IMG/VR virus record: IMGVR_UViG_3300019487_000010
Coordinates: 1 to 44,817 of that record
Source of the DNA: a virus
Reading direction: 5' to 3' (one strand)
Length of the DNA stretch: 44,817 nucleotides
Numbering within the stretch: position 1 is the stretch's first letter; each line of letters opens with the position of its first letter. This document shows positions 8,877 through 39,817 of the stretch, one piece after another. The notes beneath the pieces are model-generated. The model searched no databases and was not told the DNA's origin. It saw nothing but the letters and a program-made list of their open reading frames with translations. The translations under genes were made by a program, and so were the position numbers.

Positions 8877-8885
8877 GAGAAGCTC

Positions 8886-10544: not shown

Positions 10545-10611
10545 GTCACTCTCCTACGTGTTGGCTCCTACCCGCGCGGGGTTGAAGCGGTTTGAGGTTT
10601 CCCTGCTGTAG

Positions 10612-15700: not shown

Positions 15701-16185
15701 GTCCGGTATATGGTCGCCGCGTACGCGTCTGAGAACCCGCCGACCTGCTGGATCAGCCGCTGAGGAGCGACATCGCCTTCACCCGAGTCCAAGAAGCCCA
15801 CGAGGAGGCCACGCACCTTGTTCTCGATCGCCTGCGACGCCGCCCGTGTCACGAAGAAAGGCTCTCCGAACGTGTACTCGTCGATCAGCTGAAGCTGTTC
15901 CGCCTCGGTCAGCGGCGCACGCTCCCCAAACACCTCGACCGCCTTGACGAGGGTCCTCGAGAGGGCATCATCGAGACGATACTGCACCGGCGCTCCGCCG
16001 AGCTCCCGCCTCGCGTCCGCGCGTCCCTCCGTGTGCGCGTAGAAGAGCAGCCGGCGGAGCCCCTCCTCCACCTCCGCGTGCTCAACCTCGACCTCGCTCT
16101 TTCCCCGGGTGAGCCGGTAGACGATGGCGCGAGTGAGCCCTCGAAGGAGGGTACGGGCTCTCTCCTGGGCGGTCGCGAGGCTCAT
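12712..16185 (-). CDS. Polyvalent virion protein: MuF/SPP1 gp7-like head morphogenesis domain + type IB topoisomerase-like domain + repeat linkers + C-terminal ADP-ribosyltransferase-like domain
   Basis: MuF: HPAWFGHTPPLGFNCRCTL (aa ~210-230). TopIB: GLRPGSE, FGVTTLLGQHV, LQFVGKSGK, RPKDFRTVVAT, IQNTPAVARSSYIHP (aa ~335-605). HPRDVNGRF motif at aa 688-696. ART-like R-S-E triad: KAHRG, AASSWSED, WENEAEVI (aa ~1050-1128). Confidence 0.85.
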   Translation of the reverse strand: MSLATAQERARTLLRGLTRAIVYRLTRGKSEVEVEHAEVEEGLRRLLFYAHTEGRADARRELGGAPVQYRLDDALSRTLVKAVEVFGERAPLTEAEQLQLIDEYTFGEPFFVTRAASQAIENKVRGLLVGFLDSGEGDVAPQRLIQQVGGFSDAYAATIYRTNVVKAFNRGKVLEARCHPKLWGFQFLTANDPNVRHNHQAGHRVALPKGHPAWFGHTPPLGFNCRCTLRTVTLAEAEVKGWTRSDPEVPTAWQADDVGFGNALHLRAPVAEPYTVSFAWNEAQHARVSAGHGRASGEFSPKGGQPAAAPGPAPVLGAPGGKRAAPGSQLHPTVQAKLKELGVKKLPAADVTDVRVGSLTDPHGKAILSWRDKSGKLQQSYTAATVKANAAKKWVKIEKLEPKYEKARAGLLSQVRSLPLGSPEHEAATAASLIAVTGLRPGSEGSVAAHGHFGVTTLLGQHVKPEKGGVRLQFVGKSGKLNDVTVHEPALVAALTHYARKGKNERVFSQGVRGAVAEKTAGLGFRPKDFRTVVATREGREAIKRLTPPPPPLPAGDKAQGQLMARVLKEASKQVSGVIQNTPAVARSSYIHPNVFEQFARSVGYDPGKLRENEHTVTFAEGVSPEALESDDYDDDGELDLDYYPLPPALEPYWEDEDEDADELDEYQRQLREHSDVVRFVSWHEDLHPRDVNGRFISKGQGSEKIRQLGAVAASHKSLGDWHGPEAATYKAWLATQKMMGDGVGSLGKSFLKHAWNAAHALGHEGLQKALKAHAEDLGVDLGSPARVDLSVQDLVGEAHSPKHGVAGRDSPGGALGKHLAGLGPKVEPPKAEPPKAEPPKAAPPKAEPPKLQPEARAYVSKVLMEAHDKLHAKHPRSYQHLKASLKAHVAQLETGSYSSSKLLADLHDASTRSDPLRKVAEIRSKTVREALEQGSLSKPAEPPKPAEPPKPAEPPKPVRERPTPREGGGFSDHPHIKRLHPRAAARWEEVIGNDYAETGEFLDIWSTGGEDESGQKPEGLLKEVAENSPRVKALYEATQRLLPDKPLKAHRGMQLTESDLQAMLDQGVVPQRAASSWSEDLDVVLDNYAQPQAGKVPVVLTGTLPKSSILAHHAIAPNVGWENEAEVINRSSLMQITGVRKDEDEGITYLEVKAKE
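13313..13373. repeat. 18-bp tandem repeat x3.4 encoding (PAEPPK)n linker
   Basis: ggcttgggcggctccgct repeated head to tail inside 12712..16185. Confidence 0.9.
13636..13710. repeat. 15-bp tandem repeat x5 encoding (PKAEP)n linker
   Basis: cggcggctctgcctt repeated 5 times with 2 point variants inside 12712..16185. Confidence 0.9.
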
Positions 16186-20501: not shown

Positions 20502-20540
20502 CGCCTCGATCTCCTCCGGACTGGGCCCCGTTTCCGGGGA

Positions 20541-20662
20541 GGCTCCCCTGTATTCAAACTGCACTTTTGTTCCCCAGCCCCTCCCCGCACCGGCGGGCAC
20601 GCGCCCGCGCCCGCGCAGGAAGCCCCTTTTGCACAAAAGTGCAGTTTGAATACAGGGGAGCC
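20541..20662. repeat. Palindromic element copy 1: 30-bp perfect terminal inverted repeats around a 62-nt GC-rich spacer
   Basis: 20541-20570 GGCTCCCCTGTATTCAAACTGCACTTTTGT is the exact reverse complement of 20633-20662. A second copy lies at 39696-39817. Confidence 0.9.
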
Positions 20663-20666: not shown

Positions 20667-21479
20667 TCAAGAAAGGCCCGCCCGATCCAACCTTCGAGTG
20701 AGCAACGCGGTAACCCCGGGCTGAGCCTGCACCTCGCTGAGCCAGTCAGCCGTGTTTCCGGCGAACACCACGGCGTGCAGTCCCGCGGCCGCCACGGTGG
20801 CCGCCCAGCCTAGGGCGCTCACCCCCCACCCCGCGCGATGACCCAGCATGTAGCCCGCGAGACCGGGCTCAACTCGTTCAAGCGGAGCGTAGACCGACCG
20901 CAGCCGCTGGCGCTCCTCGAGGAGCTGGAGGTGGAGCCAGCTGTTGCTGTGCGCCAGTCCGGCGTACCCGAGGCGAGCGAGGGCCAGCGCCAGTCGACGT
21001 GGCTCAGCCTCCCGCTTGAGGTGCACCAGGAGCGGGTAGGCGAGCACCTCCTCGAGCAAGGTCACGCCGTGACGCTTGAGCCAGCGAGCGCTCCGCTCGT
21101 GGGTGAGCGGTCCCGACGGCCACACCCGCGGGCTGTGCACCAGGACCGGGACGCTGTCCCGAGAGAGCCGCACATCGACCTCGCTCAGCCACGCGCCCTG
21201 CGCCGCTGCCGCTTCGACCGCGGCGAGGCTGTTCTCCGGGTGCGGGTGCGCTCCGCGCCACGCGATCACCCTCACGGGAGGGTGAGCCGCGTCCCGAGCG
21301 GGGCGTCGAGCGACGCCTCGTCGAGCGGGACCTCGGGGAAAGCTGACACGCTGGTCCTGCGCGCGTTCCTTGTCAGCTTCATCGGTGAGGCGCGCTGCCT
21401 CCTCGGCGTACGTCTCCTGCGTCCACCTTGAGCCGTGGGCGTCCCTACGCCCACCAAGCTTGGCCAGCTTCTTGACCAA
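20667..21479 (-). CDS. Glycerophosphodiester phosphodiesterase (GDPD)-like protein with substituted catalytic motif
   Basis: VIAWRGAHPHPENSLAAVEAAAAQGAWLSEVDVRLSRDSVPVLVHSP aligns with the GDPD signature iaHRG...ENsl.A...A...Ga..iE.Dv.lt.Dg.pVv.HD, but has W for the first His and HS for HD. The TTG start is uncertain. Confidence 0.6.
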   Translation of the reverse strand: MVKKLAKLGGRRDAHGSRWTQETYAEEAARLTDEADKERAQDQRVSFPRGPARRGVARRPARDAAHPPVRVIAWRGAHPHPENSLAAVEAAAAQGAWLSEVDVRLSRDSVPVLVHSPRVWPSGPLTHERSARWLKRHGVTLLEEVLAYPLLVHLKREAEPRRLALALARLGYAGLAHSNSWLHLQLLEERQRLRSVYAPLERVEPGLAGYMLGHRAGWGVSALGWAATVAAAGLHAVVFAGNTADWLSEVQAQPGVTALLTRRLDRAGLS

Positions 21480-22050: not shown

Positions 22051-22452
22051 TTAGTCGTGGTGACGACGGGGGCGACGACGGGGCTGGCCAGGCACGGAGC
22101 CGTTCGGCGGCGGCGCGACCTCGGGCCGCTTTTCCGCGAGAAACGCACGCCGGAGCGCTTCGGGCAAGAGCTCAAGCCGATCCTCCTTCTTCGCCGCTGC
22201 GACTCGCTCCGCGCACGCGTGGCAGAGCCGCACGCTCAACATGCACAGGTCCCCGATGACCACGTGGGTGATCACGTAGTGCTGGGTGTGGACCCAGCAC
22301 CCGTGGCAGGCTCCCTCGGGGAGCTTCTCGGGCTGAACCCTCGTGGGCACCGTGTTCGTCATGAGCTCCCGCACAAACCGCTTGTGGTCCTCGGTCACCT
22401 CCTCGTGTTTGAGCCCCAGGATCTTGATCGCAGCTTCAGTCCACCTGCTCAT
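22051..22452 (-). CDS. Hypothetical Cys/His-rich protein (133 aa)
   Basis: ORF with CHGCW...CHAC motifs, coupled to the ligase gene. Confidence 0.5.
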   Translation of the reverse strand: MSRWTEAAIKILGLKHEEVTEDHKRFVRELMTNTVPTRVQPEKLPEGACHGCWVHTQHYVITHVVIGDLCMLSVRLCHACAERVAAAKKEDRLELLPEALRRAFLAEKRPEVAPPPNGSVPGQPRRRPRRHHD

Positions 22453-23203
22453 CGGCGAGCTCCTTGTCCTCGCGCACCCGTACGAGGCGGGGGAACCGGA
22501 GCCGCCCGCCCGCCGCGACGCTGTCGTAGGCTACCTCGACCACCATGCCCGCGCGCCAGCTCGTGAAGAGCTGAGCTCGCACCTCGTCGGTCATCCCGCT
22601 CACGTTCGCGACCACCGTGCCGTCTCGGCGAGCGCACACCAGCGAGCCGAGGGTCCCTGCGAACTTCCCCGCTGAGCCCTCCTTGACGTCCACGACCTGG
22701 AGGTCGCAGGTCCGCACGGGCTTGAGCTTGTACGTGTCGTACACGCACCGCTTGTGACGGTAGACCAGCCCCTCCCAGGCTGCGGCCTGGAGGAAGCGAA
22801 GCGCGTCTACCTCGTCGAGAGCCTTGTACGAGACCACGTGTGGAGTCTCGAGCCCGAGCCGCTTGAGCAGGAGCACGTGCTTTCTCGTGGAGAGCTCCTC
22901 CCACGGACCCTCCGGGGTCTCGAGCACCTGCCACGCGGTGAACCGCACCCGCCTCACTCCCGCCTTCAAGGCGGTCAACACCGCGGTCGCGGGCTCAGCC
23001 TCGAGCCACGCCTCGCCTAGAACGACGAACCCGGGTGGGACCCCGGGTAGGGGTCGCCTCGGGTAGCGGGTACGTTCGCCCGTGAACGAGTTCCTCCCTC
23101 GTCCCAGGGCGTCTTCCCGAGAGAGGGTCACCTGGAGCCCGTCGTACTTCCGTTCGACGAGCGTGAGCCCCGGCGGGATCAGCCCCGCCCTCCATGGCTT
23201 CAT
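22436..23203 (-). CDS. lig: ATP-dependent DNA ligase (small, T7-like)
   Basis: Motif I ERKYDGLQV (KxDG), motif IV EGLVYRHK, motif V YKLKPV. I chose the ATG at 23203, which shares its A with the upstream TGA. Confidence 0.8.
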   Translation of the reverse strand: MKPWRAGLIPPGLTLVERKYDGLQVTLSREDALGRGRNSFTGERTRYPRRPLPGVPPGFVVLGEAWLEAEPATAVLTALKAGVRRVRFTAWQVLETPEGPWEELSTRKHVLLLKRLGLETPHVVSYKALDEVDALRFLQAAAWEGLVYRHKRCVYDTYKLKPVRTCDLQVVDVKEGSAGKFAGTLGSLVCARRDGTVVANVSGMTDEVRAQLFTSWRAGMVVEVAYDSVAAGGRLRFPRLVRVREDKELADEQVD

Positions 23204-23430
23204 CAGCACCTCCAGTAGAGGGCGTCTCGCCCGCACCGCGGGCACGTTTGAGCAATGCCGCTCCCCACTCGGAGGTGAAGCCAGCCGCTGACGAGGTGAC
23301 TTACCACCTCGTCAGCGCGCATGACCCCCGGCTCGTCGGAGGGAAGCGGCACCACGATCCCGCCGCACTGGCAGGCGATCATCTCTCCAGGCGGGTAGGC
23401 GAAGGTGCGGCGAGTGAGCGGGCTCACCAC
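23203..23430 (-). CDS. Small zinc-ribbon protein (75 aa)
   Basis: CQC ... CPRC cysteine pairs; GTG start. Confidence 0.45.
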   Translation of the reverse strand: MVSPLTRRTFAYPPGEMIACQCGGIVVPLPSDEPGVMRADEVVSHLVSGWLHLRVGSGIAQTCPRCGRDALYWRC

Positions 23431-23988: not shown

Positions 23989-24003
23989 CTGCTGTCTCCT
24001 GTC

Positions 24004-24066
24004 CGCCTACCTCGTCAGCGCGCGGAGGCGACCCGCGCGGACCCCGCCCGTAGGCGGGGTTTCGGC
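24004..24066 (-). ncRNA. Type II hammerhead ribozyme motif HH-A
   Basis: Minus strand: GCC-GAAA-CCCCGCC-UACG-GGCGGGG-U-C/CGCGCGG-GUCGCCU-CCGCGCG-CUGACGA-GGU-AGGCG. All core nucleotides are present, with a GUC cleavage triplet and a loop I / 3' tail pseudoknot. Confidence 0.8.
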
Positions 24067-24067
24067 T

Positions 24068-24511
<444 letters not shown>

Positions 24512-24534
24512 CTTTCTCGCTCCTGTCTCCGAGG

Positions 24535-24597
24535 AACCTGCCTCGTCAGCGCGCGGAGGTCACCCGCGCGGACCCCACCTGCGGGCGGGGTTTCGGC
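24535..24597 (-). ncRNA. Type II hammerhead ribozyme motif HH-B
   Basis: Minus strand: GCC-GAAA-CCCCGCC-CGCA-GGUGGGG-U-C/CGCGCGG-GUGACCU-CCGCGCG-CUGACGA-GGC-AGGUU. The core is intact, and the differences from HH-A preserve pairing. Confidence 0.8.
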
Positions 24598-24885
24598 TCA
24601 GAAGTTCAGGCAGCCCGACTTGCCGCTGCCGTACCGAACCCGGATCTGCGTGAGCCTGAACCTGAGGAGCTCCCGCTTGGAGGTGTACTGGCCGTTCACA
24701 GCCTGGAAGTCCTTGTTTTCGTCGAAGTCCCTCTGCGCAGCCTCGAGGGAAGGGTACTTTCGGCCGTACGCGGCGCGGAGCGGCTCCAGCCCGAAGAGGC
24801 TGAAGGGGAACCCCGCTAGGCGGCCCTCGTTCGCGCCCTTCGCCTGGTCATCGAAGCTCTCCTGAAACCGCTCGAGGTTGCTCAT
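24598..24885 (-). CDS. Hypothetical protein (95 aa; possibly N-terminally longer, up to 24987)
   Basis: ATG at 24885 preceded by AGGAGAACC. The track ORF extends through a Pro/Ala-rich stretch from a GTG at 24987. Confidence 0.5.
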   Translation of the reverse strand: MSNLERFQESFDDQAKGANEGRLAGFPFSLFGLEPLRAAYGRKYPSLEAAQRDFDENKDFQAVNGQYTSKRELLRFRLTQIRVRYGSGKSGCLNF

Positions 24886-25012: not shown

Positions 25013-25033
25013 TTTCTGCTGTCTCCTTCTGTC

Positions 25034-25096
25034 CGCCTGCCTCGTCAGCGCGCGGAGGCGACCCGCGCGGACCCCGCCCGTAGGCGGGGTTTCGGC
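25034..25096 (-). ncRNA. Type II hammerhead ribozyme motif HH-C
   Basis: Identical to HH-A except that stem II position 10.3 is C instead of U, so G:C replaces G:U. Confidence 0.8.
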
Positions 25097-25105
25097 TCTA
25101 CGGCT

Positions 25106-26014: not shown

Positions 26015-28015
26015 TCACGAGGCACCCCACCCACGAAGCTCAAGGGCGCGCGACGCCGCGAGCGCGGAGGCGAGCTCCGTTGCGAGCGCGACCGGGTCAT
26101 GCGTGAGCGGATGAGCCTTCACCTTGCGAGCGTGACCCCACGACCGTCCGCTCACCTTCATGTCAACGATGAGCGGGAGCCGCAGGCCCCAGTCCTCCGG
26201 GTCCTCGAGGAGTCGCCAGAGCTCAAGCATGAAGGGCAGGAGCTCGCTCTCCTTCACGGAGAAGAGGAGCGAGTCATGCACCATGATGAGGAGTTTCGCT
26301 CCCCACCGCGGCTCGAGCTCACGGAGCACCCGCAGAACCTTCACCTTGAAGATGTCCGCGGCTCCGCCTTGGATCACGTAGTTCAGCGCCTTGTGGGAGC
26401 CCTGCTCGGGGTTGAACCGGTACACCCGCCCAAGGACGTTACGAACCCACCCGCGTCGCTTGACCAGCCGCTTGACCTTCGTTTGCAGGGCTCGGATCGA
26501 AGGGAACTCCCGGTGGTAGCTGTCGTAGATCTGCTGAGCCAACAGGTCCGTGGTCCGAGTGTCCAGCTTCTCAGCGCGCTTCGCGGTCTGAGTGCCCGCG
26601 CCCATCAGGAGCGTACGCATGGCGGCCTTCATCTCACCGGCTCCGCCCTGAGCCTCCTTCAGCTTCAGGGTCGCCGCGAGGTTCTTGAGGAGCTTGGCGC
26701 GACCCATCCCGTAGACGAACGAGAAGTTCAGCTGCTTCGCGAACTGGCGATCCACCCCGAGCCGGGTAGCCAAGGACTGGTGGAAGTCCGTGAACGGGTT
26801 CTCGAGGAACGCGGCCAACACGCGGGCGTCGTTCGCGTAGTGCCCGAACAGCCGGTACTCGATCTGGCTGTAGTCCACGGACAGGAGCACCTCGTCCGCC
26901 TCATGAGGCTCTACGAACGCCTCCGCCTCCACGGGTACGTTAAACAGTGAGGGATTCCGGCAGGACATGCGTCCGGTCGCGGCTCCCGCTTGAGCGATCC
27001 CCGGGTGCAGAAGCTCCTGCTCATCCACCCGTTTGAGCCAGCCCTCCACGTAGGTGGCGAGGAAGTGTTGGTTCTTGCTGTACTCCGAGAGGAGCTTTCC
27101 CACGGGATGGTTGAGCGTCTCGAGCGCCATCGAGTCCCACTGAGGCTTCCCGCTCTTCGTGAAGGCGAGGGGATGGAAGCCCAGCTGACCCATCAACAGC
27201 TGACTCACGTCCTCGTCAGCCCCAGGGTCACACATGAAGTCAGCGACCTGGTTGACCTCCTCCCAGAGCTGGACCTGCCGCGCCAACAGCCCGTGCTGAG
27301 CGCGCTTGATCGCCTCCACCTTGACCGGAAAGCCCCGCCGCTCCACCCGCAAAAGCTCCCGGGTAAGCGGCACCTCCACCTCGGACCAGAGGCGGCGACT
27401 CAGGTCCGGAAGCCTCTCCTCAGCGGCGCGGAAACAGTCCGCCGTGACTAGAGCGTCGCTCTCCGCGTACTCACCGAGGAGCTCTACGGGGGCCTTCGCG
27501 TAGTCCTTGGTCTTCGCACGGCGGCGCCACGGGGTGAGCAGGTCCTTCCCCCGCTTTCGGTGCTCCGCGTTGAAGACCGCTGCGAGGTAGTGCAGCTGAT
27601 ACGAGGGCAGATCGTTGTGGGTCAGTCGCGAGATCACCCAGAGGTCCTCGATGGAGGCTGCGCTCAGCCAGTCAACCCCGTCTACGTACGCGAAGTGGGC
27701 GTCAAACTTCACGTTATGGTTGATCACCCGTCGGTTCCGCACTAGGTCGCTCAGCCAGCGGGTGGCGCCCTCAAGCTCCACGTTGTCACCATCGTAGTGC
27801 CGCAGGGGCACATAGGTCGACCATGCCCCGTCGAGGGTAGCCACGCCCCAACTCACCGCTCGATCCCCACAGAAGGGCTGGTCCCCGTAGCGATCATCGA
27901 CAAACCCCGTGGTCTCCACGTCGAGCACCACGGGCACGCCGGGAGGAGGAAGCTCCTTCAACTCGCCCACCAGAGCCTCCCCTCCTCCACAGCCTCGTTG
28001 AGGCGAGCCACCCAC
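26015..28015 (-). CDS. polA: Family A DNA polymerase with 3'-5' exonuclease domain
   Basis: Exo I VLDVETTG, Exo II NHNVKFDAHF, Exo III YAESDALV; Pol motif A LLSVDYSQIEYRL, motif B RQFAKQLNFSFVYGMG, motif C IMVHDSLLF. The true start may be GTG 27970 or TTG 27961 (TTGA overlap). Confidence 0.9.
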   Translation of the reverse strand: MGGSPQRGCGGGEALVGELKELPPPGVPVVLDVETTGFVDDRYGDQPFCGDRAVSWGVATLDGAWSTYVPLRHYDGDNVELEGATRWLSDLVRNRRVINHNVKFDAHFAYVDGVDWLSAASIEDLWVISRLTHNDLPSYQLHYLAAVFNAEHRKRGKDLLTPWRRRAKTKDYAKAPVELLGEYAESDALVTADCFRAAEERLPDLSRRLWSEVEVPLTRELLRVERRGFPVKVEAIKRAQHGLLARQVQLWEEVNQVADFMCDPGADEDVSQLLMGQLGFHPLAFTKSGKPQWDSMALETLNHPVGKLLSEYSKNQHFLATYVEGWLKRVDEQELLHPGIAQAGAATGRMSCRNPSLFNVPVEAEAFVEPHEADEVLLSVDYSQIEYRLFGHYANDARVLAAFLENPFTDFHQSLATRLGVDRQFAKQLNFSFVYGMGRAKLLKNLAATLKLKEAQGGAGEMKAAMRTLLMGAGTQTAKRAEKLDTRTTDLLAQQIYDSYHREFPSIRALQTKVKRLVKRRGWVRNVLGRVYRFNPEQGSHKALNYVIQGGAADIFKVKVLRVLRELEPRWGAKLLIMVHDSLLFSVKESELLPFMLELWRLLEDPEDWGLRLPLIVDMKVSGRSWGHARKVKAHPLTHDPVALATELASALAASRALELRGWGAS

Positions 28016-28833
28016 GGAGCTCGTTCGTGAAAGTGAAAACGCCTCAAGACCTGCGGGTGAGGAAAGCTCGCTGGCTGGAAGCCAAGCTCACGCAGACGCG
28101 CAAGAGCTACCTTCCCCAGGGCTACCACGGAGATGGGCCTCAGGTACCGGACCAGCTCTTCAGTCAACGGTTCTCCGTGACGACCATACGCGTTCACCAG
28201 GTGAACGTCCTTAGGGGTGAGCCCTGCTCGAGCGAGCAGGTCGTAGAGGTAGGGGCCGCTCCCGACGGGTCGTCGCCCCTGGAAGGGAAAGCTGAACTGA
28301 GCGACCCTCTTGGGGTTCACTCGCTCAGCGACCAGCAGGACCCGCGGTGAGAGCGACCCCCAGCCTGCTCCGCCCAGCTTCTGGTAACCCACGAGGGTAC
28401 GCACCGCCTTGTCGTGCCTAGCGAAGAGCAGTCCGCTGAGGTCTCGCTTGACCCACTCCGGGTCCGGCTTCGCGGGCAGCCGCATGATGAACGCCGGCTC
28501 TAGCTCCGGCGCTCGCTCGAGCGCCCGTTCATACCGCCTCTCTTCACCGAGGAGGAGGAGGGTGCTGGCGGTCAACGCCGCCGCGAGTCCGAGGTGCCAA
28601 CGCTCCACCACGGAGAGCGCGAGGTTGCGCCCCGCGAGGGGAGCCTCTGCCATGTCGGTGAGCGCCCACCGATCCACCACGGTCGCCCACAGCGCTTGCC
28701 CCAGCCCCGCCCAGTACTGACCGTCGGGCTCCAGCACCCGCACCGCGGAGACCGCCGCCCCGAGCGGGGTGGTGAGCGCTCGCGCGAGCGTGGTCTTGCC
28801 CACCCCGTTGGGTCCCTCGATGAAGATGGCCAC
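27958..28833 (-). CDS. Fusion protein: N-terminal P-loop deoxynucleotide-kinase-like domain + C-terminal uracil-DNA-glycosylase-fold domain with a non-canonical active-site motif
   Basis: N-terminal domain: IFIEGPNGVGKTT and VVDRWALTD (dNK/Tmk-like). C-terminal domain: VLLVAERVNPKRV..FSFPFQGRRPVGSGPYLYDLLARAGL...VHLVNAY...FPHPQ follows the family-4 UDG layout, but AERVN replaces GE(A/G)PG. Confidence 0.65.
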   Translation of the reverse strand: MAIFIEGPNGVGKTTLARALTTPLGAAVSAVRVLEPDGQYWAGLGQALWATVVDRWALTDMAEAPLAGRNLALSVVERWHLGLAAALTASTLLLLGEERRYERALERAPELEPAFIMRLPAKPDPEWVKRDLSGLLFARHDKAVRTLVGYQKLGGAGWGSLSPRVLLVAERVNPKRVAQFSFPFQGRRPVGSGPYLYDLLARAGLTPKDVHLVNAYGRHGEPLTEELVRYLRPISVVALGKVALARLRELGFQPASFPHPQVLRRFHFHERAPWVARLNEAVEEGRLWWAS

Positions 28834-28835
28834 CG

Positions 28836-29711
28836 CTACTCCTCCAGGTACAGGTAAGCAGGAATGTGAGCGGGTATGTAGGCGACTCGACCGTGCACCG
28901 GGGACAGGTGCAGGCTCGCGCCACAGAGATCGTAGACCGTTCCGGTGTACGTGGACTCGACCTGCGGGCAGGACTCGGTGGCCTGACAGTGGACCGGTGG
29001 CACGAACATGTTCGAGGCCTCACCCTTCACCGCGATCTTCTTCCACCAGCACCCGGGGTTGCATCCCTCAGGGAGGAGCGGGGCCAGCCATGGAGACGCC
29101 ACGAGGAGGGCTTCACGGAGCTTCACCGTGAAGACCAACTGCTCGTGGGACTGGGTCTGCGGGCACCGCCTCGAACGATAGAGGTTGAGCAGAGCCGCGA
29201 GGTTCAGGTGCACGTAGATGAAGGAGCTAGCCCCGCTGGGCAGGGAAAACCGGGCCTCGTAGGGCGTTACCTGACGAGAGTCCAGCAGATCAGCGTAGAG
29301 CGTCTTCTGGAGGAGCGCGAAGTGCACGTACCGTCGGAGCAAGGGCCCGCGCAAGACCCGGGGTACTAGCACATCGTCGTCTCGGCAGTCACGATCGCCC
29401 GTGCACTGCTGGCTGAAGGTCACTCCAACGCGCGCGCGAACCAACTGGTGGGTAAAGAACCTCGAGACACCGGTCAGGAGCAAGGTCCAGTGGAGCTCCT
29501 CCTGCCGGTTCCAGAGCGCGCCCTTCATAAGCTCCGGCGACCACTCCTGCTCCCGGGGAGCGTCGAGGTGGCATGCGCCTACCGCCTGCGCGGCTGCTCG
29601 AAGGTCCTCCTCCGAGGGGGCCTTCAAGACCTTCACGGTGCAAGCCTCGGTCAGGTCCAAGAACCTCGTACGCGGCATGGCATCCCAGTGCCAGTCAATC
29701 TTCCCGGTCAT
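28836..29711 (-). CDS. thyX: Divergent flavin-dependent thymidylate synthase (ThyX)-like protein
   Basis: SRFFTHQLVRARVGVTFSQQCTGD aligns with the ThyX motif sR...HQlvRHR..SfSQQSqRY, but with RHR->RAR, S->C and R->G. I chose the ATG at 29711, which shares a base with the MazG-like stop. Confidence 0.65.
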   Translation of the reverse strand: MTGKIDWHWDAMPRTRFLDLTEACTVKVLKAPSEEDLRAAAQAVGACHLDAPREQEWSPELMKGALWNRQEELHWTLLLTGVSRFFTHQLVRARVGVTFSQQCTGDRDCRDDDVLVPRVLRGPLLRRYVHFALLQKTLYADLLDSRQVTPYEARFSLPSGASSFIYVHLNLAALLNLYRSRRCPQTQSHEQLVFTVKLREALLVASPWLAPLLPEGCNPGCWWKKIAVKGEASNMFVPPVHCQATESCPQVESTYTGTVYDLCGASLHLSPVHGRVAYIPAHIPAYLYLEE

Positions 29712-30034
29712 CAGAACCTCCTGTCTGTCTTGGTGACCGCAGGCTTCTGCTCGTTGTGCCGGAGCTTCGCCAGTACCGCCTTCTCGATACGCCACCGCTC
29801 TCGCCCCGCGAGGTTCAGCAGAGCGAGCACCACGTCCGCAGCCTCCTCCTCGATCTGAAGGAAGCCTGGCAGCCTGGTGCTGGGGCGAGCCTCGCGGGCT
29901 CGGTGTTCCATGAACACCTCAGACACCTCGCTGTGCACCAACGCTATCTGGCTCGCGAGCGTAGACTGCTCCCACCAACCCTTCGCGATGGCACAGGCGA
30001 AGGCCCTGTCCGCCAAGTCCGTCAGCTGCCCCAT
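29711..30034 (-). CDS. MazG-like nucleoside triphosphate pyrophosphohydrolase
   Basis: LVHSEVSEVFME ... IEEEAADVVLALLNLA gives the EvsE ... EE.aDv pattern in a ~107-aa all-helical protein. Confidence 0.65.
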   Translation of the reverse strand: MGQLTDLADRAFACAIAKGWWEQSTLASQIALVHSEVSEVFMEHRAREARPSTRLPGFLQIEEEAADVVLALLNLAGRERWRIEKAVLAKLRHNEQKPAVTKTDRRF

Positions 30035-30039
30035 CTACC

Positions 30040-30597
30040 TCACAGCCTCCCCCTGAGCTCAGTGTACCGCCGGATGAACGCCTCCCGCGCCGCGTCCCGT
30101 GGCCACGCCGGCCACACTGGCATGGTCGGGCCCTGGACTGGCTGGTCCCTCGTGAGGCTCCAACCGAGCTCCCCGAAGTACGCTACAGTCTCCTGCCGAC
30201 AGAGCTCACGGTCAGCCGACTTGACCGCAGCCCAATGAGCACACGGAAAGTCCTCCCCCTCTGCGACCTGTTCCAGGAGCCAGTCCTCGAGGGCGATGAG
30301 CTCCTTTCCCGCGAGGTGTCGAATTGGAGCCACCAAGTCCCCGATGATCATCTCTCCCACGTCGTGGAGCAGGCCCGCCAGCGCCAGGTGAGGCGCCACC
30401 ATGTAGCTAACCAACACCGAGTGCTGAGCCACGGTGTAGGGGATGTAGCCGTTGAAACGGGTCTGACCAGCAAGGCTGGTAGCAGCTTGGGTCAACCGAG
30501 CCCAGGTGGTCCATCTGAAGTCCCGCACCACCAAGTACTCCACCGGCTCCGTAACGAGGAGCTTGAGCTCCCTGAACCGCTCCGGAATGACGCTCAC
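30040..30597 (-). CDS. HD-domain phosphohydrolase (YfbR-type 5'-deoxynucleotidase-like)
   Basis: YTVAQHSVLVSYMV ... LLHDVGEMIIGDLVAPI (H ... HD ... D). I chose the GTG at 30597, which forms a GTGA overlap with the upstream stop. Confidence 0.65.
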   Translation of the reverse strand: MSVIPERFRELKLLVTEPVEYLVVRDFRWTTWARLTQAATSLAGQTRFNGYIPYTVAQHSVLVSYMVAPHLALAGLLHDVGEMIIGDLVAPIRHLAGKELIALEDWLLEQVAEGEDFPCAHWAAVKSADRELCRQETVAYFGELGWSLTRDQPVQGPTMPVWPAWPRDAAREAFIRRYTELRGRL

Positions 30598-31151
30598 ACG
30601 ATCCTCCCCTGCCACGGGCTCTTGGTGAGCGGAGAGCCGTCCCTGAGCCACTTGTCGAGCTCCGCTGCTCCCACGAGGTAGTCGTCGAACCCCTCCGCCA
30701 GCATCAGGTTCACCGCCGCCGGGTAGTCCGAGTAGAACGCAAGGAGGTGCGGCTTACCCGCTATCTGGCGCCTCGCGTACGCGTAGCCGAGCTCCCAGAC
30801 CGTGCCCGTGTCCGGGAGAGCCAACGGCGGCGAGAAGGTTGGCACCTGCACAGCACCGGAGAGGAAGGACCGCGTGAGCAACGCAGCGGGCTCGGGCATC
30901 GTCACCACCCGGAGGCTCTGCCGGGGCGGGAGAGCGTAGGTGAGCACCGCCAGGACCAGGTCCGCGTCAGCCACGTGCTGGCAGTTCAGCTCGAACGCCC
31001 TCTGCCGCTCGAGCGCGCTACCGTCCGGGGCGACAAAACACTCCCGACGAGGGCTGAACACCTGGTGGTGCGGGTCGAGCGCGTTCTCGAGCTCGTTGAT
31101 CAGCCCCACCTGGACGGGATTGAAGAACGGGCCTGCCAAGTAGAACCTCAT
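30594..31151 (-). CDS. Nucleoside 2-deoxyribosyltransferase-like protein
   Basis: The N-terminal MRFYLAGPFFNP signature (YlAGPfF), a later WELGYAYA and the size are consistent with the NDT/Rcl fold. Confidence 0.6.
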   Translation of the reverse strand: MRFYLAGPFFNPVQVGLINELENALDPHHQVFSPRRECFVAPDGSALERQRAFELNCQHVADADLVLAVLTYALPPRQSLRVVTMPEPAALLTRSFLSGAVQVPTFSPPLALPDTGTVWELGYAYARRQIAGKPHLLAFYSDYPAAVNLMLAEGFDDYLVGAAELDKWLRDGSPLTKSPWQGRIV

Positions 31152-31744
31152 AGCTGTTGAATCCTCCGCTGATGTTTTTCCGTCAGAAAATGAGGAGCGG
31201 TTAGATAGAGCCCCTCCATCGAGATGAGCTCAGGCGCTCGATCCTCCATCTCGAGCCACTCATACCAGAGTGCGTGCCACGCTTGACGCTGAGCGAGCAC
31301 CCGCGTCTCAGTTGCCCACGACAACTGACGGTGTCTCCGCGCCACCGTCGGTGTCAGCACCTGAGAGGTTTCCCTGGTGATCCAGGAGCGCCTCTCCCTC
31401 CGCTCCTGCACCACCTCCACGGGCTCTCTCAGCATGATCTCGGTCACGTCTCCAAGAGACCGCATGAATTCGAGAGCCTTCGGGTGGTGAAAGCCTGGTG
31501 GACGCACATAGAGCCACTTGGCAGCCGTCACGACAGGTGCGTAGAACGTCGTCTCCCGCTCCCACCCCGGAAGGAACAGGAGATGCCCTTCCGCGGAGAG
31601 GACTCGCCCGAGGAACCCGTGCCCGGTCTCTGACACGACGAGGTTGGTCAAAAACCACGCGGTGGGAGCCACCGCACGCCTCACGTTGAGCTCGAGGGTG
31701 CTCTTGCCCGACCCAGGTGGCCCGCTAACCACGACGTTACGCAT
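31148..31744 (-). CDS. P-loop NTPase / nucleotide kinase-like protein
   Basis: Walker A VVVSGPPGSGKSTL at the N-terminus; ~198 aa. Confidence 0.55.
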   Translation of the reverse strand: MRNVVVSGPPGSGKSTLELNVRRAVAPTAWFLTNLVVSETGHGFLGRVLSAEGHLLFLPGWERETTFYAPVVTAAKWLYVRPPGFHHPKALEFMRSLGDVTEIMLREPVEVVQERRERRSWITRETSQVLTPTVARRHRQLSWATETRVLAQRQAWHALWYEWLEMEDRAPELISMEGLYLTAPHFLTEKHQRRIQQL

Positions 31745-32426
31745 GCCCCCAAAAGTCCCCCGCCCTGTTGCCCTTCAAGGTCCGCCCCGGCCTCGGGCAC
31801 TTCATCGCTCGCTCCTCGGCCTTCTCCACCACCACGGTGTGGTTTAGCTGCCCGCTCCGCTGAGGAGCGGCACGCTGCCGCAAGCCCCGCCTGCGGAGCT
31901 CATCGATGACCTGCTCCAACACCCAGCACGAGCGGCGAGCGCCACCCGCGTACAACTGGCTCCCGTAGAGGTACCGCTGAAGCGTGACCCGATCCTGGAC
32001 GCTTCCCCCAGGGTCGTTGTTGCGAGCGAGCAAGAGCTCAAGGTCCCGAAAGGTAAGGGTGAACCGCCCGCCCAGCTCCAGTACCCTGGCGACCTCGTTC
32101 AAGAAGAACTGCGCTTGGCTCGGCGAGAGAAACTCAAGGGTAAGTTTCACGCGTACCTCGGTCACGTGCTCCTCTCTGAAAGGAAGCCCCAACCGGAGGT
32201 CCCACGGAAGCACCCGTGGGTACTCTCGGAGGTCCAGGCCCACCCAACCAGCGTACTTCGCTCTCATGAGGTCTTGACCACACCCGGGGTACACCCGCTG
32301 GCCTGGCGGGAGGGTCATGCAATCTTGGTACACCTTCCGCAACGTCTCCGCAAAGCCCCCGTCCAACGATCGCTGCTCGAGGTTCCGCCACGCCAACATG
32401 AGCTCCCACCGCTCCTCGAGGTTCAT
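31737..32426 (-). CDS. Class I SAM-dependent methyltransferase
   Basis: Motif I RVYPGCGQD, WVGLDL, LPFREEHVTEV, and post-motif VLELGGRFTLTF. Confidence 0.6.
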   Translation of the reverse strand: MNLEERWELMLAWRNLEQRSLDGGFAETLRKVYQDCMTLPPGQRVYPGCGQDLMRAKYAGWVGLDLREYPRVLPWDLRLGLPFREEHVTEVRVKLTLEFLSPSQAQFFLNEVARVLELGGRFTLTFRDLELLLARNNDPGGSVQDRVTLQRYLYGSQLYAGGARRSCWVLEQVIDELRRRGLRQRAAPQRSGQLNHTVVVEKAEERAMKCPRPGRTLKGNRAGDFWGHA

Positions 32427-35263
32427 AGCTCAGACTCCTTCGCCGCGAGATCCTGAGGACTCTCATCAGGCACGTCGGTCAGCCCTCTGAGCAACTCGAT
32501 GAACGCGGAGCTCTTTACGTACCCGTGAGCTCGCTTACGGATGGCCCCGTGTCTGACGAGCGCTCCCACGAACTGGCGAGCCTCATCCAAGTCCATCTGG
32601 GTCCAGTCCAGAACGTCCGCTATCTTGAAGACCGTGGCCTCGAGCAAGAGGTCCCGCAGGCTCGCTGCGAACGGGGTGGCCAAGATCAACTTCTTGACGT
32701 ACTCTGGCTCACGAAGCACCTCGCTCTCGATGAACGCCTTGCTGTACGCCGCATACCCATGAGCCTTAGCGGAGTATACCTCATCGAGGTACTCGTGCAC
32801 CGCCGCCACGTGACACGGTCGCACCACGAGGGTGACCCCGTCCTCGGTTGAGAAGGTCAACGCCGCCATGGCAGCGGCCAACCGGGCCAGCTTCAGCCGC
32901 TGATCCGCAGGCTCCACGAGCGGGATCCGGCTCGAGTACCGGGTGCCCATGGTCTGGGCCGCTGTCAAGACCGCCTCGGTAGTGCCCTCCCCCATAGCCA
33001 CCTGGTGCTCCGTCCGAGACCACGCCCAGAGGACCAGCGCACGACAGAGGTCCGCCGTGTAACGGTGCTCCGCTCGAGGCCGCGCGGAGTCACGTAGGTG
33101 AATGACCTCTGGCGGAACATCCCCTGACGCGACCACCACCGCAAAGTCCAATCGTCGCACGTCCTCAAGGTTCCCGATCAGCTGACGCACCGCCTCCACC
33201 CCGAAGTTGTAGCTGGCGATCTGCCAATCCCGCCTGGGGTTGCTCACCCAGAGCAGCCGAGTACGAGCGTGGGTCTGCACCTTCTCGATCTTCGCCAAGG
33301 CCGCGATCCCGCTGGACCGCATGTCCGTCAGCTGAGCTATCACCTCCTCGCTCAGGCCCTTCACCTCCTCGAGGACCACGAGTCTCCGGTCATTCAGCGG
33401 GATCACGCCCCAGGACACGAACCACCGCTTACCGGTCTCCTGAAGGCCGCCCTTTAGCCCCGCCGCGCTGGCGCCCTTAGCGTCAACCTTCTCCCCGAGC
33501 CCGTAGTGCTGCATGAGGCAAGCGATGGTCTCGCTCTTCCCCTGTCCGGAGTCGCCCAAGATCAGAGCTTCGACCCAGCCCTTGCGAAGCCTTCCCTGAA
33601 AGGGGAGGTAACAGACGCTGTGGTAGGTCAGGTCCACCGCCATGTGCATGGCGGTGCGCTGGTAGATCCGCGTCACGTTGGTGCTAAGGTCCGAGTACCG
33701 CCGCTCGAGAGCCCGCTGAACACTCTTCTTGGTCCAGTGTTTGGGTCGCACCAGCGTGGTCAGGGCCGCTTGAAGCTCCTCAGAGAGGACAAACGTGGAA
33801 AGCGCGTCCCGCGTGGGCTCCATCTGGTAGGCGAGCAGGGTAGCGTACTGGGTACGGGGCTCCGGCACCACCTTCGCGGTCACCTTGTACGGGGTGTTGG
33901 TCTCTGTGCCGTGCCCGACCCTAAACGCGCGAACCACGACGTGGTCCGCTTCGTTGGCAGTCAGCTTCAGCTGCGGAATCAGCCGAAGCTCCTCGATGTT
34001 CTGGTTCTTCACCACCTTGAACCGGCACACGTCGCACCGCCGCGGTATGCTCGCGAGCCGCTTTAGAGGGTACTCCAGACGATCCGTGGGGCACCCGCAG
34101 AGCTCCAACACCCGGGCGCTGGTAGCGTCCACGGTGATGACCGCAGCGTCAGCGGGCAGGTTCATGACCGGGCACACCGCACAATAAGGCGTGTCTCGGC
34201 TGCACAGCACCTGCACCTCGGCGGGCACGATGAACGGAGCGGTGTCCTTAGCTGAGACCACCGTGTCCACCACGACGTGCTTGTAGGCCAACCTCGCGTG
34301 GCTGGCCTCGGAGAGGCCCACTGCGATAGGCGTAACGTTGGCCTCTGGCTCGGTATCCTTGTCGGAGAGGATCGGGGGCTCCCAGGCCGGAGCCTCCTCG
34401 AGAACCCTTTGAAAGTCCTCCACTGAGTGGTTCAACGCGATCAAGAAGTCGGTGACGTCCCCGTGCGGGTACTCCGCTGGGTCGATGGGCAGGAGCACGT
34501 TATGCACCCGCTTGGCGTAGCGGAAGAGCTCGCGACACCGCTTCGCGGCGTTCACCCTTCCTGCCTTGTCAACGTCATAGACCACGTGAACGACCTTGCC
34601 CTTGAAGAGGGGCGTCCACGAAGACGACCACGTTCCCGCTCCCCCGGTAACAGACAGAGCGTTGAGCCCCTGTTGGCGCAGGAGCAACGCCTTCAGCTCA
34701 CCCTCAGCGAGGATGACCTCGTTCTCACGAAGAGCCTCGATCGGGTACAGGCGAGGCCGGGTCTTCCCGCTCTCCAGCCTTGCGTTCACCACCTTGCGAG
34801 CCTTGTCCGTGGGAGACCACAGTCTCACCGCGACGATCGAGCCTTCGTGGTCAAAGACCGGGATCGAGATCCGCCCCGAGGTAGTCCCAAGCAGGTACTC
34901 CTTGGCCGTCGCGACCGTGATCCCCTTCCGCTCACGAAGCTCCTGCAAGAGAGGCCGGTGACGGAGTAGGGTGTTGTGCCACTGGCGGACCTCCTTGGGG
35001 TCAAAGGTGGCTTTGTGTCCGCCTTGCTCGAGGTGCTTCTTGACAACCGCCTGACTCTCACCCACGTGAGCAGCCAGGAGCTTGACCAGCGGCCCGCTCT
35101 CCCCACACGCGTGACAGGCAAACGCCCCTGAGTCCGTGTTGACGGAGCAGGACGGAGTCCAATCATCGTGGAAGGGACAGCAGACCAGCACCCACCCGTT
35201 TGCCTCTCGGCCGAGGTCAAACGTGTAGTTTCGTAGCACCTGGACTACGTCGAGCTCGCTCAT
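32423..35263 (-). CDS. DnaG-type primase (CHC2 zinc finger + TOPRIM) fused to an MCM-like AAA+ helicase
   Basis: Zinc finger CPFHDDWTPSCSV...ACHACG. TOPRIM VILAEGELKAL and VVYDVDKAG. MCM-like ILGDSGQGKS, KGASAAGLKGGL, LVVLEEVKGL, GIAALAKIEKVQTHARTRLLWVSNP, VRRLDFAVVV, plus an upstream Cys4 cluster. Confidence 0.8.
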   Translation of the reverse strand: MSELDVVQVLRNYTFDLGREANGWVLVCCPFHDDWTPSCSVNTDSGAFACHACGESGPLVKLLAAHVGESQAVVKKHLEQGGHKATFDPKEVRQWHNTLLRHRPLLQELRERKGITVATAKEYLLGTTSGRISIPVFDHEGSIVAVRLWSPTDKARKVVNARLESGKTRPRLYPIEALRENEVILAEGELKALLLRQQGLNALSVTGGAGTWSSSWTPLFKGKVVHVVYDVDKAGRVNAAKRCRELFRYAKRVHNVLLPIDPAEYPHGDVTDFLIALNHSVEDFQRVLEEAPAWEPPILSDKDTEPEANVTPIAVGLSEASHARLAYKHVVVDTVVSAKDTAPFIVPAEVQVLCSRDTPYCAVCPVMNLPADAAVITVDATSARVLELCGCPTDRLEYPLKRLASIPRRCDVCRFKVVKNQNIEELRLIPQLKLTANEADHVVVRAFRVGHGTETNTPYKVTAKVVPEPRTQYATLLAYQMEPTRDALSTFVLSEELQAALTTLVRPKHWTKKSVQRALERRYSDLSTNVTRIYQRTAMHMAVDLTYHSVCYLPFQGRLRKGWVEALILGDSGQGKSETIACLMQHYGLGEKVDAKGASAAGLKGGLQETGKRWFVSWGVIPLNDRRLVVLEEVKGLSEEVIAQLTDMRSSGIAALAKIEKVQTHARTRLLWVSNPRRDWQIASYNFGVEAVRQLIGNLEDVRRLDFAVVVASGDVPPEVIHLRDSARPRAEHRYTADLCRALVLWAWSRTEHQVAMGEGTTEAVLTAAQTMGTRYSSRIPLVEPADQRLKLARLAAAMAALTFSTEDGVTLVVRPCHVAAVHEYLDEVYSAKAHGYAAYSKAFIESEVLREPEYVKKLILATPFAASLRDLLLEATVFKIADVLDWTQMDLDEARQFVGALVRHGAIRKRAHGYVKSSAFIELLRGLTDVPDESPQDLAAKESEL

Positions 35264-39502: not shown

Positions 39503-39691
39503 CTACGGCAAAACCTCCACGAACAGGTTCACCGTCTGCCCGGGCTGAAGCCCCCAGTCGCTCGGGAACAAGAGCGCCCCGACCTCGCGGAGCGCCCCTC
39601 GCTCGTCTCGCTCCGCGAACGTCACCTGAAGGGCTCCTGGCTTCGGAGCCATCTGAACTCCGAACACGACCACCTTCACGCTCTGGTTCAT
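39503..39691 (-). CDS. Hypothetical small protein (62 aa)
   Basis: I chose the ATG at 39691. Its SD (AGGGGAG) lies inside the 3' arm of the palindromic element. Confidence 0.4.
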   Translation of the reverse strand: MNQSVKVVVFGVQMAPKPGALQVTFAERDERGALREVGALLFPSDWGLQPGQTVNLFVEVLP

Positions 39692-39695
39692 GGGC

Positions 39696-39817
39696 GGCTC
39701 CCCTGTATTCAAACTGCACAATTTGAAAAGTGGCTATGCCTGCGCGGGCGCGGGCGCGTGCCCGCCGGTGCGGGGCTCCCCTTTTGCACAAAAGTGCAGT
39801 TTGAATACAGGGGAGCC
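39696..39817. repeat. Palindromic element copy 2: 24-bp perfect terminal inverted repeats around a 74-nt spacer
   Basis: 39696-39719 is the exact reverse complement of 39794-39817. The arms are identical to copy 1, and the 37-nt core is inverted relative to copy 1. Confidence 0.9.

Follow-up and report, generated by a model that had tools for sequence, protein, structure and literature searches.

A nucleotide-metabolism cluster beside a phage DNA polymerase gene

The window analysed here, all 44,817 nt of the IMG/VR virus record IMGVR_UViG_3300019487_000010, carries next to its family A DNA polymerase gene (PolA) a compact cluster of nucleotide-metabolism genes, whose central enzyme is a relative of the flavin-dependent thymidylate synthase ThyX (Table 1). 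Bases 1-123 recur exactly at 44695-44817, leaving a unit of 44,694 bp, so that the window is a complete phage genome, terminally redundant or circularly assembled. This completeness made a full gene inventory possible, in which a second thymidylate synthase, PurZ, dCMP deaminase, trimeric dUTPase and ribonucleotide reductase are all missing. Base composition is 65% G+C and the minus strand carries every gene.

The first-pass annotation of this DNA had described a single translationally coupled run of seven genes, all of which were found as open reading frames (ORFs) on the minus strand; an independent public gene call for the same contig gives equal lengths for five of them (185, 185, 107, 291 and 291 aa). 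Starting from the primase-helicase gene, the junctions are overlaps of 4 nt (with the methyltransferase-like gene), 8 nt (methyltransferase-like/P-loop), 4 nt (P-loop/nucleoside 2-deoxyribosyltransferase, NDT) and 4 nt (NDT/HD), a 5-nt gap (HD/MazG), a 1-nt overlap (MazG/ThyX-like, TGATG), a 2-nt gap (ThyX-like/kinase::uracil-DNA glycosylase, UDG) and a 13-nt overlap of the kinase::UDG gene with PolA, if the latter starts at 27970. This is the most likely start (GGAGGAGG upstream; 651 aa in the public gene call). Most starts in the cluster are preceded by GGAGG-type ribosome-binding sites. Given these short overlaps and gaps, the run is tightly packed and probably translationally coupled, as had been proposed.

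The proposed domain labels held for the NDT, YfbR-type HD, MazG-like, ThyX-like and thymidylate (TMP)-kinase-like::UDG-fold proteins. The label of S-adenosylmethionine (SAM) methyltransferase is weak, and the supposed P-loop kinase has a Walker A motif only. These last two genes are also absent from every related locus described below, and thus the conserved unit comprises five genes plus PolA rather than seven genes.

Table 1. Genes and domains of the cluster and of its surroundings
Feature	Coordinates	Strand	Length	Supporting match
Primase (CHC2 zinc finger)::MCM-like helicase	32423..35263	-		PF01807 1.8e-11; phrog_18685 1.9e-85
Possible class I SAM-methyltransferase-fold protein	31737..32426	-	229 aa	Methyltransf_11 E 0.042, 14.9 bits vs 21.2 cut-off
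P-loop ORFan	31148..31744	-	198 aa	Walker A motif only
NDT / dNMP N-glycosidase (DNPH1) family protein	30594..31151	-	185 aa	PF05014, 38.6 bits vs 28.8 cut-off
YfbR-type HD phosphohydrolase	30040..30597	-	185 aa	phrog_318 1.8e-27
MazG-like all-alpha NTP pyrophosphohydrolase	29711..30034	-	107 aa	phrog_3301 1.3e-15
ThyX-like protein, central enzyme of the module	28836..29711	-	291 aa	PF02511 1.2e-15, 58.3 bits vs 24.8 cut-off
Thymidylate-kinase-like P-loop domain (residues 1 to ~150 of the 291-aa fusion)	28384..28833	-		phrog_761 'thymidylate kinase' 3.3e-6
UDG-fold domain (residues ~155-291 of the fusion)	27958..28371	-		Foldseek, T. maritima family-4 UDG 1l9g E 3e-8
Family A DNA polymerase with 3'-5' exonuclease (PolA)	26015..27970	-	651 aa	PF00476 4.6e-56; phrog_17 5e-95
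ATP-dependent DNA ligase	22436..23245	-		PF14743 1.4e-9; cluster c10 in related loci

The central protein keeps the ThyX fold with a replaced catalytic motif

Like canonical ThyX (PF02511/TIGR02170), the ThyX-like protein passes the Pfam Thy1 cut-off and has the ThyX fold: the top Foldseek matches of its AlphaFold model (pLDDT 72.6) are all ThyX (E 1e-8, TM 0.5-0.7). Unlike canonical ThyX, it scores below the cut-off of the NCBIfam thyX equivalog (TIGR02170), with 37.1 bits against 87.9; as controls, the second Thy1 protein of a related locus (L001) and the ThyX of another (L082) reach 117.9 and 104.3 bits. Where ThyX has RHR...S-x-R-Y, the window protein reads THQLVRARVGVTFSQQCTGDRDCR, and alignments to the family profile and to Mycobacterium tuberculosis ThyX reveal a near-invariant signature for the whole clade of such proteins, T-H-Q-L/I-V-R-x-R-V/I-G-x-T-F-S-Q-Q-C-T-G-D-x-D-x-R-H. 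In the numbering of Thermotoga maritima ThyX, S88 is replaced by Cys, R90 by Gly, Y91 by Asp, H53 by Leu, and H79 by Ala (in the window), Gln or Thr. The loop has one extra residue and the new D-x-D-x-R-H signature, several flavin-contacting residues are missing, and the C-terminus is extended by ~60 aa.

In ThyX, S88 and Y91 are strictly conserved and R90 is conserved, all three being critical for methylene transfer, and R174 acts as the dUMP activator via N3 deprotonation (PMC8316439, PMC11940539). Equivalents of R78, R80, R147 and R174 are retained in the ThyX-like protein. The last two, which are dUMP-binding, correspond to its R154 and R181; neither varies among 43 clade members, and they align to R172 and R199 of M. 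tuberculosis ThyX. The first-pass annotation was therefore right to point to a ThyX homologue with a mutated motif, and the mutation is invariant across the clade. With the fold kept, the key residues replaced and the equivalog cut-off failed, the protein is, judging by its sequence, a member of the ThyX superfamily outside ThyX proper, without the defining catalytic features of that enzyme.

Loss of the canonical catalytic residues and of several flavin contacts might also be expected of a dead enzyme, a nucleotide-binding or regulatory subunit whose neighbours would be unrelated auxiliary nucleotide genes placed together by chance, and the motif loop is modelled at a lower confidence (pLDDT 63-67). 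We consider this very improbable, because the replacement motif is near-invariant although clade sequences are only 25-40% identical overall, which indicates an active site under selection, and because synteny with the MazG and kinase genes is strict over three replicase types.

A word-indexed search returned only 12 relatives of the ThyX-like protein; scanning all 1.84 billion representatives with an HMM brought up 80 at E<1e-30, grading into canonical ThyX. JGI/ENA metagenomes contain at least 506 related loci, 80 of which were retained. The clade is common in virus-like contigs and very rare in cells (~5 of 185,579 species genomes). It has no cultured phage: a tblastn search of 50,697 phage records yielded just 10 weak matches (24-31% identity). 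Similarly, megablast of the 9-kb region detected no near-identical or related cultured phage, and PolA is at most 29% identical to anything in phage records. The clade is undescribed in the literature, where we found neither a ThyX-like modification enzyme nor the clade's partners, a Patescibacteria ThyX or the flavoprotein pairing described below. There is a precedent for the ThyX fold in a non-thymidylate role, the ThyX-family UMP/dUMP C5-methylase PolB of polyoxin biosynthesis (PDB 4p5a/4p5b). This enzyme is among the structural matches of the ThyX-like protein, but ranks no closer than other ThyX structures, and it belongs to an antibiotic biosynthesis setting rather than standing beside a DNA polymerase.

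Partner enzymes for nucleotide breakdown

The MazG-like protein has recognizable metal-binding helices (E-x-x-E...E-E-x-x-D), SEVSEVF and EEEAADV, which align to the pyrophosphatase 4qgp and to dCTP pyrophosphatase 1 (DCTPP1). Its best PDB matches are weak (E 0.05-0.2), 4qgp being followed by DCTPP1/RS21-C6, and its Pfam MazG score of 14.2 bits is under the cut-off of 22. In the HD protein, the H, HD, E and D ligands align to those of YfbR (2paq) and Atu1052 (2gz4), with AQHS and LLHDVGEMIIGD matching HDASEVLTGD of YfbR; the Pfam YfbR-like score is 17.4 bits, under the cut-off of 25.9. The protein is predicted to be either a 5'-deoxynucleotidase or a DatZ-like dNTP hydrolase. The NDT-family protein matches PDB 6evs (7.6e-9), with DTGTVWELG aligned and the catalytic Glu present, and has a ~40-aa insertion; it is likely to be either a transferase or a dNMP hydrolase. 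Homologues of both the HD protein (cluster c21) and the NDT protein (c19) occur in five related loci (L015, L016, L017, L037 and L058).

A set of MazG, YfbR-like HD, NDT, UDG and PolA is shared with the PurZ/MazZ/DatZ/DpoZ systems of phages with Z-genomes (2-aminoadenine), and a metagenomic association study reported that contigs with dZ are enriched in co-occurring YfbR-like HD, NDT (PF05014), UDG (PF03167) and PolA domains (bioRxiv 10.1101/2025.10.22.683976). If the cluster served such a purine scheme, or another non-pyrimidine one, its genes would act as MazZ, DatZ, NDT, UDG and DpoZ, and the ThyX-like gene would be incidental. This is scarcely credible. The complete genome has no homologue of PurZ/adenylosuccinate synthetase, for which reason we rejected the Z-genome reading, and has the ThyX-like gene at the centre instead; MazG is coupled translationally to this gene and not to a purine enzyme; and the MazG/ThyX-like pair is also conserved in lineages without HD and NDT.

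A kinase::UDG fusion encoded against PolA

In the kinase domain of the 291-aa fusion, EGPNGVGKTT and D54-R55-W (DR-W-x-x-T/S-E-x-x-Y) are invariant or conserved in 11 members of the fusion family. The domain scores only 12.9 bits with Pfam PF02223 (cut-off 27); stand-alone counterparts in related loci (clusters c4 and c22) match PF02223 at 3e-8, and c4 passes at 34 bits. The UDG-fold domain also has Foldseek matches to UdgX and to the Tth UDG 1ui0, and a Pfam UDG score of 19.3 bits, under the cut-off of 24.3. Consensus motifs of family-4 UDGs are GE(A/G)PG (motif A) and HPS (motif B). Here, motif A reads LLVAERVN, with an acidic residue (D/E) in the family, motif B reads PHPQ, and the Asn of VHLVNAY is invariant. 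The fusion has no cysteine at all and thus no 4Fe-4S cluster. Its structural model, built from an alignment of three sequences, has a pLDDT of 46.5 as a whole, 65-85 in the C-terminal UDG half and 25-40 in the N-terminal kinase half; structural reading was limited to the UDG half, and the kinase half was judged by its sequence motifs.

Active family-4 UDGs are coupled to PolA in SPO1, SP-10, SP-15 and YerA41, all of which have 5-substituted-uracil DNA, and SPO1-like UDG-PolA phages also have a ligase (bioRxiv 10.1101/2025.03.26.645540). For the glycosylase-fold protein of the first-pass annotation, the simplest role would be that of a replication-coupled uracil glycosylase, as in SPO1-type polymerases. 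The kinase::UDG fusion is not new, being already present in the cultured phage DSL-LC01.

The module is conserved across uncultured phages

Related loci were collected from IMG/VR (3 loci), JGI/ENA metagenomes, GTDB genomes and two Logan/JGI contigs, and ORFs were clustered across the 36 loci of at least 6 kb. A MazG-like gene lies directly upstream of the ThyX-like gene in nearly all of these, and kinase::UDG and PolA follow downstream in 11. The MazG partner has three forms: it stands alone (118-133 aa), is fused to an NT5C/HAD 5'-nucleotidase (in L001 and L002, in either order), or is joined to a Rossmann flavoprotein of ~300 aa. Within the lineage of the window, defined by primase-MCM at one end and PolA at the other, PolA is 39-40% identical, and the primase-helicase that forms the upstream edge of the module is conserved (46-53% identical in L001 and L002). 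The window's gene order (NDT, HD in some, MazG, ThyX-like, kinase::UDG, PolA) is repeated in the five loci with NDT and HD homologues, except that HD comes just after PolA in L015 and L016 and that L017 has no kinase::UDG at that position. Loci L006, L023, L026, L029 and L001 have MazG fusions, ThyX-like, kinase::UDG and PolA. As the first-pass annotation suggested from a single genome, depletion-type enzymes (MazG, HD, NDT) and the dNMP-kinase::UDG do accompany the ThyX-like gene and PolA, in five to ten related phages. In L001, a second Thy1 gene, which scores above the equivalog cut-off, co-occurs with the ThyX-like gene; by this measure, the phage possesses a genuine ThyX in addition. Direct observation covers this co-occurrence, the domain identities, the replaced motif and the synteny.

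In phages with a PolB or PolIII-alpha replicase, the kinase, a half-size ThyA-like protein and UDG are encoded by separate genes, and some of the PolIII-alpha proteins carry UDG as a fusion. We found no dCMP deaminase accompanying the clade. The slot of the window's methyltransferase-like and P-loop genes contains in relatives a TylF-type O-methyltransferase (2.6e-12), a Methyltransf_23 protein (9e-9), or weak GT2- and GT1-like proteins, and in PolB-type phages an NAD epimerase/dehydratase (9e-51); the methyltransferases are non-homologous to that of the window. Four cluster genes (311, 312 and 184 aa in L001; 266 aa in L058) had no match in Pfam, NCBIfam or PHROGs.

Two recurrent partners, both absent from the window, are themselves undescribed. 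The half-size (~180 aa) ThyA-like protein (L003 10920-11462, L027 11318-11863, L023 10849-11373; PF00303 at 2e-7) is encoded directly after the ThyX-like gene in Patescibacteria and in many phage loci. The catalytic Cys and Y-x-R-S-x-D are retained, Asp stands at the position of Asn177 of E. coli ThyA, and the protein may belong to a two-component enzyme. The Rossmann flavoprotein (L003 7600-8538, L027 8645-9916, L082 345-1289, L001 4600-5523 and other loci) is remotely similar to UDP-galactopyranose mutase (UGM): UGMs make up all of its top 17 PDB profile matches (best E 3e-6). Fusion to MazG is frequent, and the flavoprotein gene lies directly upstream of canonical ThyX and ThyX-like genes alike. 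We had considered this partner as a sign of sugar chemistry, and dropped the idea since canonical ThyX genes have the same neighbour; it is better seen as a ThyX-coupled flavoprotein than as evidence of glycosylation.

A possible ThyX-fold route to a 5-substituted pyrimidine

We propose that the conserved core (NDT, HD, MazG, ThyX-like, TMP-kinase-like::UDG and PolA) may carry out pool-level replacement of a pyrimidine by a 5-substituted pyrimidine, made by a ThyX-fold C5-transferase, and give this reading a probability of about 0.48. The pathway that we infer, including every substrate, every product and incorporation into DNA, would run as follows. The MazG-like enzyme would cleave the competing canonical dNTP to dNMP, the HD phosphohydrolase would convert the dNMP to the nucleoside and the NDT-family enzyme the nucleoside to the base, so that the canonical pool is depleted. 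The ThyX-like enzyme would bind a pyrimidine dNMP and add a one-carbon group at C5. Its substrate would more likely be dUMP than dCMP, because the Arg147 and Arg174 equivalents are kept and the partners are of the T/U type. Its product would not be of the thymine type, because S88, R90, Y91 and H53 are replaced by the invariant C-T-G-D-x-D-x-R-H set; possible products are a 5-substituted dCMP or 5-hydroxymethyl-dUMP, the latter formed if water captures the exocyclic-methylene intermediate. The TMP-kinase-like domain would then phosphorylate the new dNMP, a host NDP kinase would make the triphosphate, and PolA would incorporate it. The UDG-fold domain, encoded against PolA, would excise misincorporated uracil, and the ATP-dependent ligase could complete this repair by sealing the strand.

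No published pathway with this set of genes was found in the literature, in agreement with the first-pass annotation, which could name none. A close parallel is with the 5-hydroxymethyluracil (hmU) phages SPO1, phi-e and SP8, which use a dUMP hydroxymethylase, a dTTP/dUTP pyrophosphohydrolase, a dTMP 5'-nucleotidase, an hmdUMP kinase and a PolA with a fused active UDG. For the window, activities of the same kinds are predicted: an NTP pyrophosphatase, a 5'-deoxynucleotidase, a C5 one-carbon transferase, a candidate dNMP kinase, a putative family-4-type UDG coupled to PolA, and a ligase. However, its C5 transferase has the flavin-dependent ThyX fold whereas theirs has the ThyA fold, its UDG-fold domain is joined to the kinase instead of PolA and is without Fe-S cysteines, and it has an added NDT-family enzyme and no dCMP deaminase.

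Thymidine hypermodification also starts with a ThyA-family enzyme (PMC8989533). The 5-HMUDK and aGPT-Pplase/AADT systems of phages M6, ViI and PaMx11 share with the window a 5-substituted uracil theme, variable tailoring genes and a P-loop protein in the cluster. Unlike them, the window has no aGPT-Pplase, PLP or radical-SAM genes. Pfam and PHROG searches over the whole genome gave no match to 5-HMUDK or to aGPT-Pplase/AADT, and with both families absent this system was ruled out. The post-replicative tailoring envisaged in the first-pass annotation is thus unsupported, as signatures of 5-HMUDK, aGPT-Pplase and DNA methyltransferases are all lacking, and the two genes that could have supplied it, methyltransferase-like and P-loop, are weakly supported and not conserved.

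Thymidylate supply as an alternative

The strongest competing explanation is one of housekeeping, in which the cluster would supply thymidylate and exclude uracil. The ThyX-like protein would be a divergent but functional flavin-dependent dTMP synthase, MazG a dUTPase feeding dUMP, the TMP-kinase-like domain the source of dTDP and UDG a means of removing uracil, with HD and NDT engaged in salvage; in some lineages the UGM-like flavoprotein or the mini ThyA-like protein may assist the ThyX-like enzyme. We regard this as possible but on balance doubtful.

Several observations speak for it and weigh against base replacement. The GTDB scan found the clade in four Patescibacteria metagenome-assembled genomes (JALHFY01, JBGSJG01, DATIIB01 and JBMOLC01; loci L087-L090), and in one further small contig, binned as gammaproteobacterial, which is identical to the metagenome locus L030. 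The Patescibacteria operon comprises six genes (UGM-like::MazG, ThyX-like, TMP-kinase-like, mini ThyA-like, UDG and NUDIX) on contigs of 21-454 kb, three of them at least 135 kb. In L088, the locus that was inspected, the operon (6620-10913) is chromosomal, flanked by YchF, SSB, a release factor, HtrA and other housekeeping genes. A core operon in such surroundings supports thymidylate supply, and we know of no precedent for wholesale base replacement in a cell. Furthermore, a dUTPase-like protein, a thymidylate synthase-like protein, TMP kinase and UDG make a textbook set for thymine supply and uracil exclusion, and one MazG-type partner matches dUTPase_2 (1.3e-4). As no other thymidylate synthase is encoded in the complete genome, the ThyX-like protein, with its conserved R147 and R174 equivalents, could be its thymidylate synthase. 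The UGM-like partner occurs beside canonical ThyX genes in PolIII-alpha phages and so is no marker of modification, and the glycosyltransferase matches in relatives are under Pfam cut-offs. Finally, in the cultured Actinomycetia phage DSL-LC01 (L086, OQ999401, 6410-8744) the order is kinase::UDG, ThyA-family protein, dCMP deaminase and PolA, with the fusion annotated as 'thymidylate kinase' next to the ThyA-family gene.

Thymidylate supply is harder to reconcile with the replacement of S88, R90 and Y91, together with H53 and H79, throughout the clade, with the failed thyX equivalog cut-off, and with the true ThyX that L001 carries in addition. MazG::NT5C fusions and the HD and NDT pair would degrade the nucleotide to nucleoside or base, destroying the dUMP that a thymidylate synthase needs, and therefore fit exclusion of a canonical nucleotide better than dUMP supply. 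No dCMP deaminase comes with the clade. Base replacement also draws support from the tailoring-type genes in the cluster slot of relatives and from the coupling of a UDG-fold domain to PolA, with a ligase nearby in the genome, as in the phages with 5-substituted-uracil DNA. A presence in ~5 of 185,579 species genomes means that this is no general cellular thymidylate synthase; in cells the module is accessory and was probably acquired by transfer. The modified-pyrimidine interpretation advanced in the first-pass annotation thus gained from the conservation of the module around a mutated ThyX, while ordinary dTMP supply, which that annotation had named as its refuting case, gained from the chromosomal core module of Patescibacteria.

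Uracil or cytosine

Within the replacement pathway, and within the probability given for it, cytosine could be the base concerned, following the logic of T4 and XP12: MazG would be a dCTPase, the ThyX-like enzyme would methylate or hydroxymethylate dCMP, and the kinase would phosphorylate the product. We think this sub-case unlikely. The T4 pathway to 5-hydroxymethylcytosine (hmC) consists of the gp56 dCTPase, the gp42 dCMP hydroxymethylase, the gp1 dNMP kinase and glucosyltransferases. The order of NTPase, C5 transferase and kinase is similar in the window; at least one relative (L001) has an ordinary thymidylate synthase in addition to the transferase paralogue, as T4 has td besides gp42; and, as a weak likeness, some relatives have glycosyltransferase-like genes in the cluster slot. 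The weak PDB matches of MazG to DCTPP1/RS21-C6 point the same way, and the new invariant Asp residues of the ThyX-like loop could read a 4-amino group. Asp at the ThyA Asn177 position marks cytosine-specific ThyA relatives. It is found in the mini ThyA-like proteins of sister lineages and in the DSL-LC01 ThyA-family protein (YMRSNDVWLGSAYDF), whose 'thymidylate synthase' annotation may hide a cytosine-specific C5-transferase.

Unlike the T4 system, the window has the ThyX-like fold, a nucleotidase and NDT, and no glycosyltransferase. The Arg174 equivalent, which in ThyX deprotonates N3 of dUMP, is invariant and argues for uracil, cytosine having no N3 proton. The partners NT5C, TMP-kinase-like and UDG are of the T/U type, the MazG-DCTPP1 matches are not significant, and a mini ThyA-like gene is missing from the window. 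The evidence points both ways, with Arg174 and NT5C/TMPK/UDG on the side of uracil and the Asp-type ThyA relatives, the L001 ThyX and the DCTPP1-like MazG on that of cytosine; uracil seems the more likely base.

Phage-specific genes and other features of the genome

The P-loop ORFan was itself the sole match among 5.8 billion proteins; it had no tblastn match in phages and no homologue in the related loci. It was considered as a 5-HMUDK and rejected, showing no homology to anything, 5-HMUDK phages included. The possible methyltransferase (motif I reads VYPGCGQD by eye) matches phrog_6636 at 0.0033 and CmoA in PDB at E 1.6, and it too is without homologues in the related loci. These two genes might conceivably contribute a phage-specific decoration.

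Elsewhere, the gene content includes Mu-like head genes, a gpA-type terminase and an SNF2 helicase, in addition to the primase::MCM-like helicase, ligase and family A polymerase. An 1157-aa head-module protein (12712-16185, minus strand) joins a Mu F-like domain (PF04233, 3e-9) to a eukaryotic-type topoisomerase IB catalytic core (PF01028, 1e-12), and may be a topoisomerase packaged in the virion. Where the packaging genes give way to the small-gene region, a 270-aa protein (20667-21479, minus strand) has a glycerophosphodiester phosphodiesterase domain (PF03009, 1.2e-9) and may be an enzyme degrading teichoic acid or lipid headgroups. A 147-aa protein (24068-24511, minus strand) with a Lys/Ala/Pro-rich N-terminus (KKTPAAKKTPAAK) and a long Asp/Glu tail is kept in related phages (cluster c8); its composition is histone-H1-like or DNA-mimic-like.

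Two repeated elements were also seen. A G+C-rich element of 77 nt occurs three times between the small genes downstream of PolA (23996-24072, 24527-24603 and 25026-25102; 78-97% identical, spaced ~500 nt). Each copy has two hairpin-like palindromes, GCGCGCGG...CCGCGCG and CCCCGCC...GGCGGGG followed by TTTCGG, and the copies are probably repeated terminators or regulatory sites. A region of ~140 nt occurs twice, at 20525-20662 and 39680-39817 (81-85% identical, 19,155 nt apart), with the palindrome TGCACAAAAGTGCA; these may be promoter or operator regions at module boundaries.

Significance

To our knowledge, all characterised phage pathways that make 5-substituted pyrimidines at the nucleotide level begin with a ThyA-fold enzyme. 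A broader proposal, which we hold more tentatively than the pathway for the window itself, is that the ThyX-like clade as a whole could be an unrecognised family of ThyX-fold pyrimidine C5-transferases that drives base replacement together with an NTPase, a kinase and a UDG, in hundreds of uncultured phages with three kinds of replicase and possibly on a few Patescibacteria chromosomes. A ThyX-fold route, if true, would be a second, independent origin of C5-substitution chemistry and would add a new family to the enzymes that make modified nucleotides. Many uncultured phage genomes would then stand out as ones with DNA that may be resistant to restriction enzymes and to some sequencing chemistries. 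Should the ThyX-like protein instead be a working thymidylate synthase, ThyX catalysis would be possible without the Ser/Arg/Tyr triad that is now deemed essential, an outcome that would bear on the mechanism of ThyX and on ThyX as a drug target.

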